A stretch of DNA of 64,000 bases from Escherichia phage ECML-359, in the sequence record OL631482.1, one strand, 5' to 3'. The stretch's first letter is position 1; the number at the start of each line of letters is the position of its first letter. Both the position numbers and the translations under genes were made by a program. The notes under the pieces are model-generated. The model did no database searches, had not been told where the DNA came from, and saw only the letters and a list, made by a program, of their open reading frames with translations. Positions 9,086-50,554 of this stretch are shown here, in pieces.

Positions 9086-9762
9086 TATATTACCTTATTA
9101 ATTTTATCAAAAAGTTCTTCGAGTGTGCCATCGTTTTTAATAACAATGTCACTAGCTAGTGGTGGAAGTCCAGCTTCCGTAATGTGTGTATCGGTAGAAT
9201 GATTTGCTTCATCGCGTTCTACAAAGATTATTGTAGCACCCATCGCCCGAAGCGAATCAAGTTCGTTCTTTTGACGAACATCTGGGACAACGTAATATTT
9301 ATATCCAGAATAGAGGTTGTCAAGATAATCGCACGCAAAAGTTTTAATCCAAAACATGCTGTCGAACTCTGTACAAACGATGTCAGTTCCAAGGGTCTGC
9401 ATGAAACGTCTAACTGTCCAGGGCTCAACATTATTTAGTGTGTGAAATTCAATGATTTTACGAACCATATCTGGATTCGGAAGGTCAAGATTGTATTGTT
9501 GTTTCAACCATTCAAGAGCATCAACCAGAAGAATATAAGCTTCGGTGTTGTTCATTATCAAGGTTTTTTCACGGTCATAACCTTGTCCATCAAAATTTTC
9601 CAGGGTCAAATTGTGTGGCAGGTCTTGACGAATCCACGCTTTATAAAGCGCTTCTTTAATCGGACCTGCAAGCTGCCACTTTGTTCCGTTTTGACTAATA
9701 ACATAATCAGCAGTCGTATCTTTACCACTGCGTTTTTTACCCACAATCGCAATTAATTTCAT
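9085..9762 (-). CDS. 1: deoxynucleoside monophosphate kinase
   Basis: P-loop GKKRSGKDTTAD, ...THITEAGLP...NDGTLEELF matches T4 gp1. Confidence 0.9.
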
Positions 9763-10358
9763 ACGTTTCTCATAGATGGATGCATTGACTTAGACCTGAT
9801 TTCCTGTTGCATTGCTGCATTACTATCAATCTGTGGTCTACCTTCTATTATTATACCATCAATTTCTACAGCAAAAGACTTAAAGTTAAAAGTTGCTGTT
9901 GCATTGATAGCCGGGTCAGAATCTTCTTTATATGAGTACTGAATCTCTGACAGGTCGGACGGCCATGCTCCATAGTAATGGATTGACATGACAATTTTGT
10001 CCTTGTTGTTATCTAAGATATGAAGCGTGACCGCTTCGGGGCGACCCTTCGGATGCCATGCCTTCGATTCGTGTGTGATGTAGTTGTTGAGCGAGAGCAT
10101 CCATTTATAAATGTCAAGCCATGCTCTTAGGTCTTTGTCACACAGAAAGTTAACAATCAGTGGGTCGAATTCTATTGTACTACCAGGAAGACTGGAGCGA
10201 TTTATACCTTGTGTTCCCCCAGGAACATCTGTCACAGGGATGTGAACACCAGGGAGGGTAACGTCTTGAACGTTGAGTTTAAAGGTCTGTGTGAGGTTTG
10301 AATCGCTTACCTCTAATATAAAGTTAGTCGTGTTAGTTTGATTATATAAACCTGACAT
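9759..10358 (-). CDS. 3: tail completion and sheath stabiliser protein gp3 (by synteny)
   Basis: ORF track 9759..10520 trimmed to internal ATG (MSGLYNQ...); position between genes 1 and 2. Confidence 0.65.
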   Translation of the reverse strand: MSGLYNQTNTTNFILEVSDSNLTQTFKLNVQDVTLPGVHIPVTDVPGGTQGINRSSLPGSTIEFDPLIVNFLCDKDLRAWLDIYKWMLSLNNYITHESKAWHPKGRPEAVTLHILDNNKDKIVMSIHYYGAWPSDLSEIQYSYKEDSDPAINATATFNFKSFAVEIDGIIIEGRPQIDSNAAMQQEIRSKSMHPSMRNV

Positions 10359-10370
10359 AATGCACCTTGT

Positions 10371-10412
10371 TTGCTTTAAAACAATCAGTGTTATAATGGT
10401 TCTAGACCTTTT
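10371..10412 (+). promoter_or_regulatory. MotA-box middle-promoter-like element (TTGCTTTA-N13-TATAAT-GGTTCTAGACC), antisense to flanking genes
   Basis: exact promoter architecture on plus strand in the gap between minus-strand genes 3 and 2. Confidence 0.5.
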
Positions 10413-10443
10413 GTCCTTACCAATAACACTGACCGATAATAGA

Positions 10444-11277
10444 TTATGAATTTCTCCATACTTTCTGGGAAGAGAATCTTTTGCCTTTCGACATAAATTG
10501 TTGCAACGGAAGCATAACAACGTTTGCCCAGTCGCTGGGCTTGATTTCAGTGATAGTACCTTTTATATTGCCAGGTATATATGCTTTAATCATCTGGTCA
10601 GCCCCTTTAAATCCCTTCACCTTTGACCAATCAATCTTCAGATGAGTCTTGTTCGTAATCGTAGGAGTATTAGCATATTGCTTAAGAAGTTCCTCAAGGA
10701 ACTCTTGACGTGCCTTCGGTGGAATATAGTGCAAGTTCAAACCGTACATCAAATTATGCTTACCTAGACCAAGATAAATGATTAACGGATATTTGTCCCA
10801 GTACGGAAGAGTATCCTTATGCTTTGCATCATAGATATAAGCATAAAGTTTGCCTGGTTGAGGTTTAGCCGTTACGTGACCGCGAACTGATTTCTTAATT
10901 GTCTCTGCGAACCATCTGGCGGATTTGGTGTTGCTTGCAGCGCCTTCGTTAGCAATCTTATCTCTTATGCTCTTCCTAAAGCTATTCACCATTATCAGCT
11001 GGCGTTCAGCCTTCGTAAGTTTACCAGCAGGTTTCTTTTTGAGCTTGGATACTTTATAAGCAGTCTGAATTCTTGAATGATACCTCGACATGCTTTTGGT
11101 AAAGGTCGAATAATTGATTCCTTTCTCTTCAGCAAACTTCTTCGAGGTCATTCCCTTTTCTTTTGCTGTATAAAATTCAACCCCTATCTCAACCCATTGT
11201 TGTTCGGATTTACTGGGTTTCGGACCTGGTTTATCTGCAGATTCATTGATAAATGTAAAAATACTCATCCTTTCCAT
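10444..11277 (-). CDS. 2: DNA end protector protein gp2
   Basis: 277 aa basic protein; position and size match T4 gp2. Confidence 0.8.
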
Positions 11278-11714
11278 CCTAATTTTTTCAGTGAGTTTTC
11301 AGTGATTATCCTGAACGTTATACCCATTTTATCTGCGGTAGCTTGCGCAGCTTTCCATTTGTCAGAGTTAACACTCCAGGTGTACATCTCGTTAATAAAT
11401 CTCTTTTTACTCGCGGCTGTATTATTAACCGGTTTGGTTGGAGGTCTTGTTTCTTTTAATGGCTTAACTTCAAAAAAGAACTGTTGTCCTGTATCAAACT
11501 TAACCCAGAAATCCATATAATATCTGCGCTTTTTCCCTTCAGCATTGCAGAAGTATGGAATAATCACAGTCTCAGAACCCCATTGAACAACGTTCGGATG
11601 GTTGTCGAGCCATCTCATCAACCACGCCTCCCAGCTTGACCGGTATTGTATTTTCTTCCAGTCGCCCTTATATTTTTCTATATTAGTGGGCTTAAATTTC
11701 CCGGAGTATGCCAT
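11265..11714 (-). CDS. 4: head completion protein gp4
   Basis: [19 protein letters not shown]...; 149 aa; AGGAGG RBS and TATAAATA late promoter upstream. Confidence 0.85.
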
Positions 11715-11742
11715 ATAGCCTCCTAATAAATATTGATATACT

Positions 11743-11754
11743 TATTTATAAATG
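11743..11754. promoter_or_regulatory. divergent late promoters (TATAAATA for gene 4 on minus; TATAAATG for gene 53 on plus)
   Basis: tatttataaatg between divergent genes 4 and 53. Confidence 0.55.
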
Positions 11755-11762
11755 GAGGCTTT

Positions 11763-12365
11763 ATGCTTTTTTCATTTTTTAACCCAATTGATTATGATGC
11801 TAAAACAATCAGAAAAAACTCGGCATCATTAACGAAAGAAGATGTCTTAAGCATCCCAATGACTGACATCTTCAGAAACTATCGTGCATATTTTGATAAG
11901 GTCGCGGTTAATTATACACCGAAAACATATTACATCGCCGGAGCTCCGAGACCTGAAGAACTTGCATATCAGCTCTATGGTAATACTCAACTCTATTGGG
12001 TTCTCCTTATGCTTAATAATATCTATGACCCGTATTATGGTTGGATATGTTCACAAGAATCATCATATCAGGCATCAATTCAACGCTATTCGAATATAGG
12101 TGGTAATCAGGTCCTTTATCATGTAAATGAAGACGGTGAAAAATTCTGGAATCTTGTTTCTTATCCTGATAATCCATACACATGGTATGATAAAGGTGAT
12201 AAGAACAAATTATACCCACAGTATGAAGGCCCATTAGCTGCAGTGGATATCTACGAAGATGCTATTCGCAAAAATGAATATAAACGAGAAATAAAGATAA
12301 TCGACCCTAATGATATCGAATCATTTATTTCGGCATTAATCCGCGAGATGGAGAAGGCGCTATGA
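11763..12365 (+). CDS. 53: baseplate wedge protein gp53
   Basis: ORF track 11733..12365 trimmed to ATG after GGAGG; size and position match. Confidence 0.85.
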   Translation: MLFSFFNPIDYDAKTIRKNSASLTKEDVLSIPMTDIFRNYRAYFDKVAVNYTPKTYYIAGAPRPEELAYQLYGNTQLYWVLLMLNNIYDPYYGWICSQESSYQASIQRYSNIGGNQVLYHVNEDGEKFWNLVSYPDNPYTWYDKGDKNKLYPQYEGPLAAVDIYEDAIRKNEYKREIKIIDPNDIESFISALIREMEKAL

Positions 12366-14104
12366 TTAATATGTCAGATAGTGTAAGTTGGTTCGTCGGT
12401 GTTGTCGAAGACCGAATGGACCCACTTCAACAAGGTCGTGTTCGGGTTCGGGTATGGGGTATGCATCCATATGAGAAATCACAAGGGCCTGTAAAAGGTA
12501 TCAGAACTGAAGACCTACCATGGATGTCCGTACTGATGCCAACATCATCTGCATCGGTTTCCGGTATTCAAACTGCCATGACTGGTATGGTACCAGGGAC
12601 TCAGGTATATGGTCACTTTTTGGACAAGTGGAAGCTCAATGGATTAGTCCTTGGTACATATGGCTCAGCATCAAGACAGAAGGCAAACACAACAGAAGGT
12701 TTTAGTGACCCCACAGGGCAATATCCACTTTATGTGGGCAATGATGCTGCTGCGCTTAACCGAGGCGGTGAGGTCGGTTATGATGACACTTCAAACGTAA
12801 TACAAGATGCAAACACTGATGTAGGTATTAATCCAGACGGGTTAGATTTAAGCCAAGTTAAGCCTGATGATAATCCTAATTTCACAATAGAAAACATGCT
12901 TCACCGCGATGAAGGTCTTCGTCTGAAAGTATATTGGGACACTGAAGGTTATCCTACTATAGGTATAGGACACTTAATTACACCACAACCTATTAGAGAT
13001 ATGAATCAGATAAACAAAATATTATCTAATCAAATAGGCCGTGAAGTTAAAGGTAACCCTGGTGCAATATCAATGGACGAGGCTTCTAAGTTATTCCAAG
13101 AAGACCTTAAAAAAGTCCAAAATGATATAGGTAGACATAGTGTTGTAGGTCCGGTTTACAATAAAGAAAACCGTTCAAGACAAATGGCTCTTGAAAACAT
13201 GGCTTTCCAAATGGGATTAGGTGGACTTGCTAAATTCCGTGGAATGCTTAGTGCAATGTTAATAGGCGATTATAAAAAGGCATTTGAAGAAGCTCGCAAT
13301 TCAGTATGGTTTAACCAAACTAAAGGACGTGCATCAAGGGTATCAATGATTATCCTCACCGGTAATATGGAATCATACGGTATTATGGCCCCAAAAGAAA
13401 TGGAATTTAATGGGCGTTCTTATAGGATGATTCAAACCTTTGCAGCCCCTACAAATTCCGACCCGGCCGACCCGTGGACTCCAGAAGATACGAGGATTCT
13501 GTTTAAAGAGCCAGAATCAAGTTACAAGGGCGAATATCCTTATGTGCAGACAATGCAAACTGAAGGCGGTCATATTCAGGAATTCGATAATACTCCAGGA
13601 CAAGAACGTTATCGATTGATTCATCCGACTGGTTCCTATGAGGAAGTTGCACCAGATGGTCGTAAGACTTCGAAGACGGTAGCCGATGGCTATTATATGA
13701 CCCAGGGCGATTCAAGCACTTATGTTGGCGGGAATAATAAAGTCAACGTTGGCGGTGATGAAACCTATTACAATATGGCTAACGTTCGTCGTCAGACCGA
13801 TGGAAACGAAACCATCCATATTCGTGGTAACGAAGAGAAAACTGTAGAAGGTAATGGAACACTCAGAGTTAAAGGCAACGTTACTGTTATTGTTGAAGGA
13901 AATGCTGATGTTACTGTTAAGGGTGATGCGACTACCTTAGTAGAAGGTAATGAAACTCGCACGACTAATGGTAATTTAAACTGGACTGTAAATGGTACCG
14001 TATCTTGGACTTGTGCAGGTGCTTGGTCCGAGACTATGGCTTCAATGAGTTCTATTGCATCTGGTCAATATACTATTGATGGTTCGAGGATTGACATTGG
14101 CTAA
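12362..14104 (+). CDS. 5: baseplate hub subunit and tail lysozyme gp5
   Basis: N-terminal VVEDRMDPLQQGRVRVRVWGMHPY; central lysozyme domain (YWDTEGYPTIGIGHL); C-terminal repeated V-x-G-x beta-helix. Confidence 0.95.
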   Translation: MINMSDSVSWFVGVVEDRMDPLQQGRVRVRVWGMHPYEKSQGPVKGIRTEDLPWMSVLMPTSSASVSGIQTAMTGMVPGTQVYGHFLDKWKLNGLVLGTYGSASRQKANTTEGFSDPTGQYPLYVGNDAAALNRGGEVGYDDTSNVIQDANTDVGINPDGLDLSQVKPDDNPNFTIENMLHRDEGLRLKVYWDTEGYPTIGIGHLITPQPIRDMNQINKILSNQIGREVKGNPGAISMDEASKLFQEDLKKVQNDIGRHSVVGPVYNKENRSRQMALENMAFQMGLGGLAKFRGMLSAMLIGDYKKAFEEARNSVWFNQTKGRASRVSMIILTGNMESYGIMAPKEMEFNGRSYRMIQTFAAPTNSDPADPWTPEDTRILFKEPESSYKGEYPYVQTMQTEGGHIQEFDNTPGQERYRLIHPTGSYEEVAPDGRKTSKTVADGYYMTQGDSSTYVGGNNKVNVGGDETYYNMANVRRQTDGNETIHIRGNEEKTVEGNGTLRVKGNVTVIVEGNADVTVKGDATTLVEGNETRTTNGNLNWTVNGTVSWTCAGAWSETMASMSSIASGQYTIDGSRIDIG

Positions 14105-20011: not shown

Positions 20012-21008
20012 TTCATCTGTAGTTTATCGTTCGATAATTACCTCGAAATTTCGAACTGAAAAAATGTATAACTTTTATAAAATGATTGGTAACGAGCCCG
20101 ACCAGAATACGATGTATGTAACATTCGGTCGTGCTGAACCCTGGGCTTCGAATGAGAATGACCCGGGGTTCGCCCCTCCTTATCCGGTTGATACAGCACA
20201 AGGTGTTGAAGATACTTGGACCAATATGATGGGGGCAGTCAAAGTTTATAAATCAATGCTTGATTGTGTTGTCCCACGTAAAGACTGGGGCGATATCAGA
20301 TATCCTAATCCGCTTAACTTCCAGGTAGGGGAAATTGTTGTAGCTAACAGTGCTCCATATAACCGAACTGATGTTGGTAAAGGTTGGATGGTTTATCGTT
20401 GTGTAGATGTTCCTGATGTTGGGACTTGCTCCATTTATTCCATTATCAATAAAGAAGAGTGCTTAAAACTCGGTGGTAAATGGACGGCGGAATATAACTC
20501 GACGAGAGCTCCAGCAGGGACTGGCGACACTGAAGGACGAGTTGATATGGGCGATGGTTATCTCTGGGAATATTTGTATGAGATTCCGCCTGATGTATCC
20601 ATCAACCGTTGTACTAACGAATATATTGTTGTTCCATGGCCTGAAGAAATCGAAGAAGACCCGTCACGCTGGGGTTACAAAGACAATATCAGCTGGCAAC
20701 AAGATGATTTTGGTTTAATATATAGAATCAAAGGATATACAATAAGATTTAAAGCATTTATGGATTCCATTTACTTCCCAGAATTCAGTCTCCCGGGAAA
20801 CAAAGGCTTCCGACAGCTGTCAATTATATCCAACCCGCTTGAAGTTAAAGTACATCCTAATGACCCAAATATCAAAGCAATCAAAGAATACTATGATGCA
20901 ATTGATTTGGACCGTCATTCTGGGGAAATGATTTATATGGAAAACCGCCCGCCAATTATTCGTGCAATGGACCAGACAGAAGAAGTTAACATTATTTTTG
21001 AATTCTAA
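20004..21008 (+). CDS. 8: baseplate wedge protein gp8
   Basis: 334 aa; synteny. Confidence 0.9.
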   Translation: MNNSSVVYRSIITSKFRTEKMYNFYKMIGNEPDQNTMYVTFGRAEPWASNENDPGFAPPYPVDTAQGVEDTWTNMMGAVKVYKSMLDCVVPRKDWGDIRYPNPLNFQVGEIVVANSAPYNRTDVGKGWMVYRCVDVPDVGTCSIYSIINKEECLKLGGKWTAEYNSTRAPAGTGDTEGRVDMGDGYLWEYLYEIPPDVSINRCTNEYIVVPWPEEIEEDPSRWGYKDNISWQQDDFGLIYRIKGYTIRFKAFMDSIYFPEFSLPGNKGFRQLSIISNPLEVKVHPNDPNIKAIKEYYDAIDLDRHSGEMIYMENRPPIIRAMDQTEEVNIIFEF

Positions 21009-44808: not shown

Positions 44809-44847
44809 GGGTCTAGAACCATTATACCGCATTTTTATTTGAAGCAA
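44809..44847 (-). promoter_or_regulatory. MotA-box middle promoter (TTGCTTCA-N13-TATAAT-GGTTCTAGACCC) for rnlB
   Basis: motif upstream of rnlB in sense orientation. Confidence 0.55.
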
Positions 44848-44853
44848 AAAGGG

Positions 44854-50127: not shown

Positions 50128-50166
50128 GGGTCTAGAACCATTATACAGCCATAAAATTAAAGCATT
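50128..50166 (-). promoter_or_regulatory. MotA-box middle promoter upstream of uvsY (oriF-like position)
   Basis: minus-strand reading AATGCTTTTA-N12-TATAAT-GGTTCTAGACCC. Confidence 0.55.
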
Positions 50167-50554
50167 AACCGTTTTGACTTAACTGAATCCTAATTTGTTC
50201 GAGGGTATCAGGGTCATCAACAATGCTGAACTGAACCGTTACGATAATGGAGTTATCATCATACATAGGGACAACTGCAACCTGTAGATTACTTATTCTT
50301 GGTTCGAAGTTCCGCACCGCGGAGACGATGTTGCGTTTAATGGTATCTGTAATTAACGGTGTGATATTCTCAAAAAGCTGATTACTTATATCACATCCAA
50401 ATTCGGGCATAAAAGGCCGTGACCCTTTTCTTGTGGTGATTATTCCCAGAAGACTGTTCTTAACAGACCTTGCACCAGTTACTTTAGCAACGTCTTTATC
50501 CCAACTTGTAGATAAGTTGGGAGATACATCGCTATACATTTTGTTTATATTCAT
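50165..50554 (-). CDS. 25: baseplate wedge protein gp25
   Basis: MNINKMYSD...LLGIITTRKGSRPFMPEFGCD...; 129 aa. Confidence 0.93.
   Translation of the reverse strand: MNINKMYSDVSPNLSTSWDKDVAKVTGARSVKNSLLGIITTRKGSRPFMPEFGCDISNQLFENITPLITDTIKRNIVSAVRNFEPRISNLQVAVVPMYDDNSIIVTVQFSIVDDPDTLEQIRIQLSQNG

Follow-up and report, generated by a model that had tools for sequence, protein, structure and literature searches.

A widely conserved, predicted clockwise promoter of the MotA/AsiA middle class in the gene 3/gene 2 gap of T4-like phages

Middle transcription and the replication origins of phage T4 are textbook systems. The 58 identified T4 middle promoters were tabulated by Hinton 2010 (PMC2988021); all of them read sensibly on the minus strand, i.e. 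counter-clockwise, and none is located at ~76000. These promoters carry a MotA box with the consensus (a/t)(a/t)(a/t)TGCTTtA centred at about -30 (PMC2988021; PMC1524935). Origins of the oriF/oriG type have a middle-mode promoter within a minimal origin of ~100 bp, and no middle promoter is known near oriE (PMC3016281). This last statement implies that the site described below, between genes 3 and 2, was not considered there.

The described systems closest to that site are PuvsY, which is the oriF promoter, and P34i, the oriG promoter inside late gene 34. A further comparison is offered by the PeSL cassettes, many copies of which lie in hyperplastic regions and each of which has a strong sigma-70 early promoter with a terminator stem-loop behind it. 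These are reportedly repeated promoter-bearing units with a stem-loop in the intergenic DNA of RB49/phi1-type phages, as Arbiol et al. are said to have described in 2010. Here we analyse a 64,000-nucleotide stretch of Escherichia phage ECML-359 (OL631482.1; hereafter the window), in which a middle-promoter element faces gene 2.

A promoter element between genes 3 and 2

The original prediction placed a MotA-box middle promoter on the plus strand of the 85-bp gap between genes 3 and 2, and both the coordinates and the pattern counts confirm every detail of it. The gap spans 10359-10443, with the whole promoter inside (Table 1). Its box, TTTGCTTTA, fits the MotA consensus at the expected distance, and a sigma-70 type -10 (TAnnnT, 11-13 bp past the box) is present as TATAAT after a 13-nt spacer, directly followed by GGTTCTAGACC at 10398-10408 (+). 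The signature is therefore complete, i.e. box, 13-nt spacer, perfect -10, G-rich discriminator, and A start. No usable sigma-70 -35 element exists at 16-18 bp: the nearest -35-like match, TTGCTT, agrees with TTGACA at 3 of 6 positions and has a 15-nt spacer when read from the sequence, and a generic sigma-70 scan did not report the gene 3/2 site. The start is predicted at A10404 in the window, equivalent to 76000 in T4, by homology to PuvsY and PnrdC.7 of T4, whose starts have been mapped by experiment (115371 and 53325) to the corresponding A, the seventh nucleotide after TATAAT.

The 17-mer TATAATGGTTCTAGACC occurs exactly three times in the 64-kb window (10392 +, 44826 -, and 50145 -) against 0.10 expected. 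The stringent pattern TGCTTNA-N11-13-TATAAT also has exactly three matches, at the same three sites, against 0.07 expected, and none of 100 shuffles reached this number. The proposed reuse of the core in sense orientation upstream of uvsY and rnlB is borne out as well, the 17-mer being identical at all three sites. We conclude that the gene 3/2 element is real, correctly placed, and far beyond chance.

Other features of the window touch on the same motifs. The MotA box of the uvsY copy (ggTTAATGCTTTA; 50160-50167, -) contains the gene 25 stop codon (TAA). Looser MotA-like matches with weak -10s are found at 20759 (-), 19768 (-), and 38429 (-), antisense inside plus-strand late genes (e.g. gene 8 and gene 7). 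A late-promoter reading of the minus strand of the gap was rejected, as inspection finds no TATAAATA there.

Table 1. Positions in the window of the promoter element, its further copies, and neighbouring features
Feature	Position	Strand	Remarks
MotA box TTTGCTTTA	10370-10378	+	TTGCTTTA at 10371-10378; box centre 10374, i.e. -30 from predicted start A10404
-10 hexamer TATAAT	10392-10397	+	13 nt after MotA box; preceded by TGT, giving the extended -10 form TGnTATAAT
Conserved start region GGTTCT-A-GACCTTTT	10398-10412	+	Predicted transcription start A10404, placed by homology
Gene 3	9759-10358	-	Start codon 10358-10356; ribosome-binding region abuts the MotA box on the opposite strand
Gene 2 (DNA end protector)	10444-11268	-	Stop codon 10446-10444; predicted antisense target of the promoter
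Left arm TCAGTGTTAT of 10-bp inverted repeat	10385-10394		Repeat encloses -10 and start site; p ~0.0035 vs shuffles
Right arm ATAACACTGA of inverted repeat	10423-10432		Pairs with TCAGTGTTAT
Conserved block GATAATAGATTA	10435-10446		Includes gene 2 stop codon 10444-10446; homing-endonuclease insertion junction in relatives
Terminator-like hairpin GCCCAGTCGCTGGGC then TTGATTTC	10526-10540	+	~122 nt past predicted start; possible 3' end of a short antisense RNA
Second copy, rnlB promoter: TTTGCTTCA, 13 nt, TATAATGGTTCTAGACC	44810-44849	-	Sense; directly upstream of rnlB ATG 44723 (-)
Third copy, uvsY promoter: AATGCTTTA, 12 nt, TATAATGGTTCTAGACC	50129-50167	-	Sense; directly upstream of uvsY ATG 50111 (-); T4 oriF position

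Conservation among relatives

The region 9700-11800 shows 95-99% identity to the Gapriverviruses EAWsc9, VR20, VR7, and SP18, which are T4 relatives within the Tevenvirinae, and gene order and strands are as in T4 (57B, 57A, 1, 3, 2, and 4 on the minus strand; 53, 5, 6, and onward on the plus strand). Both motA and asiA are annotated in VR7, a member of the same genus that is 95.7% identical here; that part of the genome lies outside the window, and the presence of the two proteins in the window phage is read through this relative. In T4, the plus strand of the gene 3/2 gap carries AATGCTTTA, 13 nt, TATAAT (75988-75993), and then GGGTCTAAGTCCCTT. When the T4 18-mer core TATAATGGGTCTAAGTCC is searched genome-wide with up to two mismatches, only the gene 3/2 site, PuvsY, and PnrdC.7 are recovered, the latter two being experimentally mapped T4 middle promoters. 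Likewise, VR20, VR25, and VR26 each hold exactly three copies of the window 17-mer. By sequence, each genus has three predicted promoters of this kind, two of them orthologous (gene 3/2 and uvsY) and one lineage-specific (rnlB or nrdC.7).

A survey of viral contigs anchored on gp3 yielded 47 loci, ~36 of which combine an nGCTTnA box with TATAAT at a spacing of 12-13 nt and a start region of the form G(G/A)nYYT-(A/G), all antisense to gene 3. Identity of gp3 among the loci with the orthologous antisense promoter ranges from 47 to 100%. The box, of nGCTTnA type, is conserved at the same distance in the 31 distinct orthologous sequences, and TATAAT is followed by G in 30 of these (the exception, of Ac42 type, has TACAAT), with diverging flanks. 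RB69 (Mosigvirus), X20 (Winklervirus), and JS98- and CC31/PG7-type phages also have the element. The relatives thus show that what had been predicted in a single phage is conserved in T4 and other Tevenvirinae.

Some lineages depart from this pattern. Genes 2 and 3 abut in Jiaodavirus KP1079 and at loci L060-L065, where the element is missing; in Jiaodavirus-type phages no such promoter is found within 1.5 kb, and the element is therefore dispensable in some lineages. It is also missing from the gene 2/3 junction in Krischvirus (RB49-like) and Slopekvirus; the Krischvirus lineage is reported to be without MotA and middle promoters (PMC1524935). A scan of viral contigs with a single MotA protein matched only close relatives and was useless for a presence/absence correlation. 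Start-region identity between the gene 3/2 and uvsY sites is striking in three lineages (11/12, 10/12, and 12/12). Within-genome co-variation of these regions is not significant over eight lineages (permutation p 0.15-0.39) and, as such, we do not claim concerted evolution.

The surroundings of the element vary among relatives. Homing-endonuclease genes are recurrently inserted between gene 2 and GATAATAGATTA, e.g. MobB-like genes in VR7 (L001 2244-2900) and VR25, and others in DK-13, P8, PSD2001, X20 (L134 1-369), and locus L044. The window phage has no such insert, and the promoter element is kept either way. In Aeromonas phage 31, the gene 2/3 gap holds an annotated multi-copy repeat, '31repeatA_3' (L130 339-409), antisense to gene 3, with a hairpin (ATCCTTTA...TAAAGGAT) around TTATATAAT and without a MotA box at -30.

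By sequence, the gene 3/2 promoter is a widely conserved new addition to the MotA/AsiA middle-promoter class. It has apparently been overlooked in T4 so far. No genome-wide map of T4 start sites, no report of 'anti-late' RNA, and no mention of the promoter strings turned up in the literature searched; earlier work, such as Miller et al. 2003 and the original sequencing papers, may already note the site. The T4 plus strand (AF158101) has further stringent MotA-box/-10 matches at 11863, 85596, and 108456 (e.g. AAATGCTTTA-12-TATAAT at 11863), none of which is in the 2010 middle-promoter list.

Transcription over gene 2

Published RNA-seq tables give a view of the orthologous T4 site. At 5 min, mean reads in wt/motAam/dksA- are 1208/61/681 for gene 2, 131/25/78 for gene 3, 527/22/47 for gene 4, 597/14/42 for gene 53, 729/62/115 for gene 5, and 7399/540/6725 for gene 34, the last with a dksA- log2 change of +0.02 (PMC6024815, Table S1). 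Gene 2 reads, which the tables do not split by strand, drop 20-fold in motAam and are DksA-insensitive, unlike those of the late neighbours. Specifically, deletion of dksA, which delays late transcription, changes gene 2 by log2 -0.63, similar to middle genes 1, 57A, and 57B (-0.60 to -0.70), and the late neighbours 4, 53, 5, and 5.1 by log2 -2.4 to -3.6. Per nucleotide, read density over gene 2 in the dksA- host is ~8 times that of gene 4 and ~5.6 times that of gene 3.

The library of that study was stranded, and strand handling in counting is not stated there (PMC6024815). Gene 34, which has the antisense P34i inside, behaves like gene 2, which suggests that the counts include antisense reads. 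By default, featureCounts ignores strand. This program was run with default settings in a T4 time course, which is silent on strand and which classes gene 2 as 'middle RNA, late protein' and genes 3, 4, 53, and 5 as late/late (PMC9697503). For T4 genes 34, 2, 38, and t, which are late genes overlapped by known or probable antisense transcription, the RNA is scored as early or middle or responds oddly to motAam (PMC6024815 Table S1; PMC9697503 Tables S2/S4). Gene-level T4 RNA-seq tables seem to mix strands, and a warning follows for such studies, i.e. unstranded counting misclassifies late genes carrying antisense promoters.

We found no MotA-type minus-strand promoter upstream of T4 gene 2, and the only perfect candidate at 75.3-78.5 kb besides P1 is the plus-strand gene 3/2 site. 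The simplest reading of the T4 counts and the promoter scan is an active MotA-dependent clockwise transcript over gene 2. From the published count tables, we infer that the T4 site is active and MotA-dependent, and we consider it very probable that the gene 3/2 promoter is active. Transcription had been predicted to run antisense through genes 2 and 4: the orientation antisense to gene 2 stands, and the T4 counts suggest an RNA that covers gene 2 and largely fades before gene 4.

As for function, we rank first a functional MotA/AsiA middle promoter combined with antisense control or transcriptional interference at gene 2, an explanation to which we give an even chance, with a role as replication origin ranked second. 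The gene 2 product, gp2, is a DNA-end-binding protein that is reported to be toxic and to interfere with end-dependent recombination, and its early presence should be harmful. Under the first explanation, a MotA/AsiA-dependent (sigma-appropriation) promoter would fire clockwise from ~A10404, against late genes 3, 2, and 4, and would produce a mid-infection RNA antisense to gene 2 that largely ends before or within gene 4. This antisense RNA, or the head-on transcription itself, may hold back gp2 until the late phase, which is speculative, and its target would be any gene 2 message arising by read-through from upstream early promoters. The promoter geometry fits a cis-antisense regulator, and the reads counted over gene 2 in T4 do not conflict with such a role. 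In T4, the gene 2 protein appears late despite its 'middle' RNA (PMC9697503).

Between the promoter and gene 53 there is no conserved plus-strand ORF; one of 147 aa (11077-11520, +) is spurious, as it is absent even in VR20 and T4. An Rfam scan of 10200-10700 returned nothing relevant. We do not rely on the terminator-like hairpin within gene 2 (Table 1), because its conservation is no more than partial and its position coincides with the conserved P-S-D-W-A codons of this gene.

Alternative roles and comparison with known systems

The second explanation is that the gene 3/2 promoter is an R-loop origin promoter of the oriF/oriG type, either as a separate (unrecognised sixth) origin or as the rightward half of oriE. 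The middle transcript would then stay hybridised downstream of its start and prime clockwise leading-strand synthesis. Several features are in line with this. The middle-mode promoter of such origins is present here as a sequence element, and its extended start motif is common with PuvsY (17/17 in the window phage and 16/18 in T4) and partly with P34i. In several lineages, the gene 3/2 and uvsY copies both have a CAATAAC-like motif downstream, and the geometry mirrors that of P34i, which is likewise a middle promoter lying antisense among late genes. The element is also 1.4 kb from the point where transcription diverges, a typical place of oriE, F, and G (PMC3016281), and T4 oriE is annotated at 79355, inside gene 5 and ~3.3 kb clockwise of the T4 site.

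Nonetheless, we regard an origin role as unlikely. The start motif is not specific to origins, as its third copy serves ordinary genes (rnlB here and nrdC.7 in T4). The A+T content of +1 to +60 is 67% here and 69% in T4 and equals the mean of the 58 T4 middle promoters (67.7 ± 5.4%), so no distinct unwinding element is evident; the same interval is somewhat G-poor (10-13% vs 18 ± 4% for the 58 promoters). The T4 record annotates oriE at 79355, oriF at 115321, and oriG at 152947 and has no origin at 76.0 kb, and Jiaodavirus-type phages lack the element altogether. If the origin role were true, a MotA-dependent rightward R-loop would overturn the view that no middle-mode promoter serves the oriE region, and a dedicated 'origin-type' start motif would be common with PuvsY/oriF across Tevenvirinae. 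A conserved, active clockwise MotA promoter at this site would, in any case, offer a defined target for mutation in studies of replication initiation around oriE.

At roughly the place of T4 oriE, the window has direct repeats (13844-13974, in the C-terminal part of gene 5; spacings 24 and 72 nt). These probably reflect coding repeats.

The conservation of the gap could also stem from its minus strand, i.e. from a stabilising or processing hairpin, or a control of gene 3 translation, in the gene 2-gene 3 late mRNA, with the promoter-like plus strand being incidental or vestigial. A folding energy of -23.9 kcal/mol (z = -3.94; none of 200 shuffles is as stable) is obtained for the gap as minus-strand RNA, and the long hairpin that it forms has UUUU at its end, immediately ahead of the Shine-Dalgarno sequence of gene 3. 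Because a common alignment puts the arms of different clades out of register, stem statistics were computed lineage by lineage. VR-, L048- (CCCGGCCAGT/ACTGGCCGGG), L051- (ATCCCAGTTT/AAACTGGGAT), and L050-type phages all have a stem at this place, with differing sequences, and the MotA box abuts the ribosome-binding site of gene 3. This hairpin muddies the conservation argument for the promoter, given that it may be relevant to the late mRNA.

We give such an exclusive minus-strand role little credence, however. The hairpin shifts by lineage, enclosing the -10 in VR/JS98 types and giving way in T4, RB69, and CC31 types to a CTTCC...GGAAG hairpin that follows the start, whereas the box, spacing, TATAAT+G, and A start are fixed. 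It is specific to the gene 3/2 locus, and the 17-mer is identical to that of the rnlB and uvsY promoters, which have no hairpin. The T4 counts, moreover, point to MotA-dependent RNA over gene 2. The hairpin and promoter functions are not mutually exclusive, and the hairpin probably has its role in the late mRNA of genes 2 and 3, side by side with the promoter.

Less probable still is that the element has no role of its own, being either a promoter cassette that is mobile or has spread passively, like the PeSLs of RB49-type phages, or a homing-endonuclease leftover. There are three identical copies per genome, the third of which sits at rnlB or nrdC.7 depending on the genus; homing-endonuclease genes adjoin the element in VR7, VR25, X20, and others; and a multi-copy 'repeatA' is annotated for this gap in Aeromonas phage 31. 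Against this, position and orientation are conserved across genera at only 47-55% gp3 identity, the element persists with or without the endonuclease genes, which point in the opposite direction, and the promoter is of MotA type and not a sigma-70 early promoter plus terminator. A PeSL-type cassette was rejected in particular, as this MotA-type promoter has three copies at conserved loci, only one of which has a flanking inverted repeat.

The least probable role, middle-phase sense transcription that would reach the plus-strand baseplate genes from 53 and 5 onward by way of an antisense leader of 1.36 kb, draws on geometry only, with genes 53 (11763) and 5 (12362) as the first plus-strand genes downstream, and is opposed by the ~8-fold lower pre-late T4 signal per nucleotide in gene 4 than in gene 2 in the dksA- host, the behaviour of genes 53, 5, and 5.1 as DksA-sensitive late genes, the late/late class of genes 53 and 5, and the lack of a conserved plus-strand ORF ahead of gene 53.

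If it is active, a conserved clockwise MotA promoter facing gene 2 would add a timing control for a DNA-end-binding virion protein. It would also explain why gene 2 scores as 'middle' RNA and 'late' protein in omics studies.

How the promoter compares with described systems can be summarized as follows. The PeSL cassettes have in common with it a short, repeated, promoter-bearing intergenic unit with a stem-loop. Unlike them, the element described here is of MotA type, occurs three times, keeps its position among relatives, and has an enclosing hairpin only at the gene 3/2 copy.

P34i is closer, being MotA-type, antisense to late structural genes, and partly similar in its start region (TATAATGGTCCCAGAG). 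Genes 34 and 2 of T4 also both have MotA-dependent, DksA-insensitive pre-late reads in the RNA-seq tables. By contrast, P34i lies on the usual prereplicative (minus) strand inside a plus-strand gene, whereas the gene 3/2 copy is intergenic and on the plus strand.

The closest system is T4 PuvsY, which belongs to the same promoter class and has the same extended start motif, with 17/17 identity between the gene 3/2 and uvsY copies of the window phage, 16/18 identity between PuvsY and the T4 gene 3/2 site, and a start on the equivalent A. PuvsY reads in the sense direction into the gene that it serves. The gene 3/2 copy, by contrast, points at gene 2 and serves no gene. PuvsY is also the oriF promoter; the DNA downstream of the gene 3/2 copy is not unusually A+T-rich. 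Relative to the 58 listed T4 middle promoters, the gene 3/2 copy would be the only one that reads clockwise.
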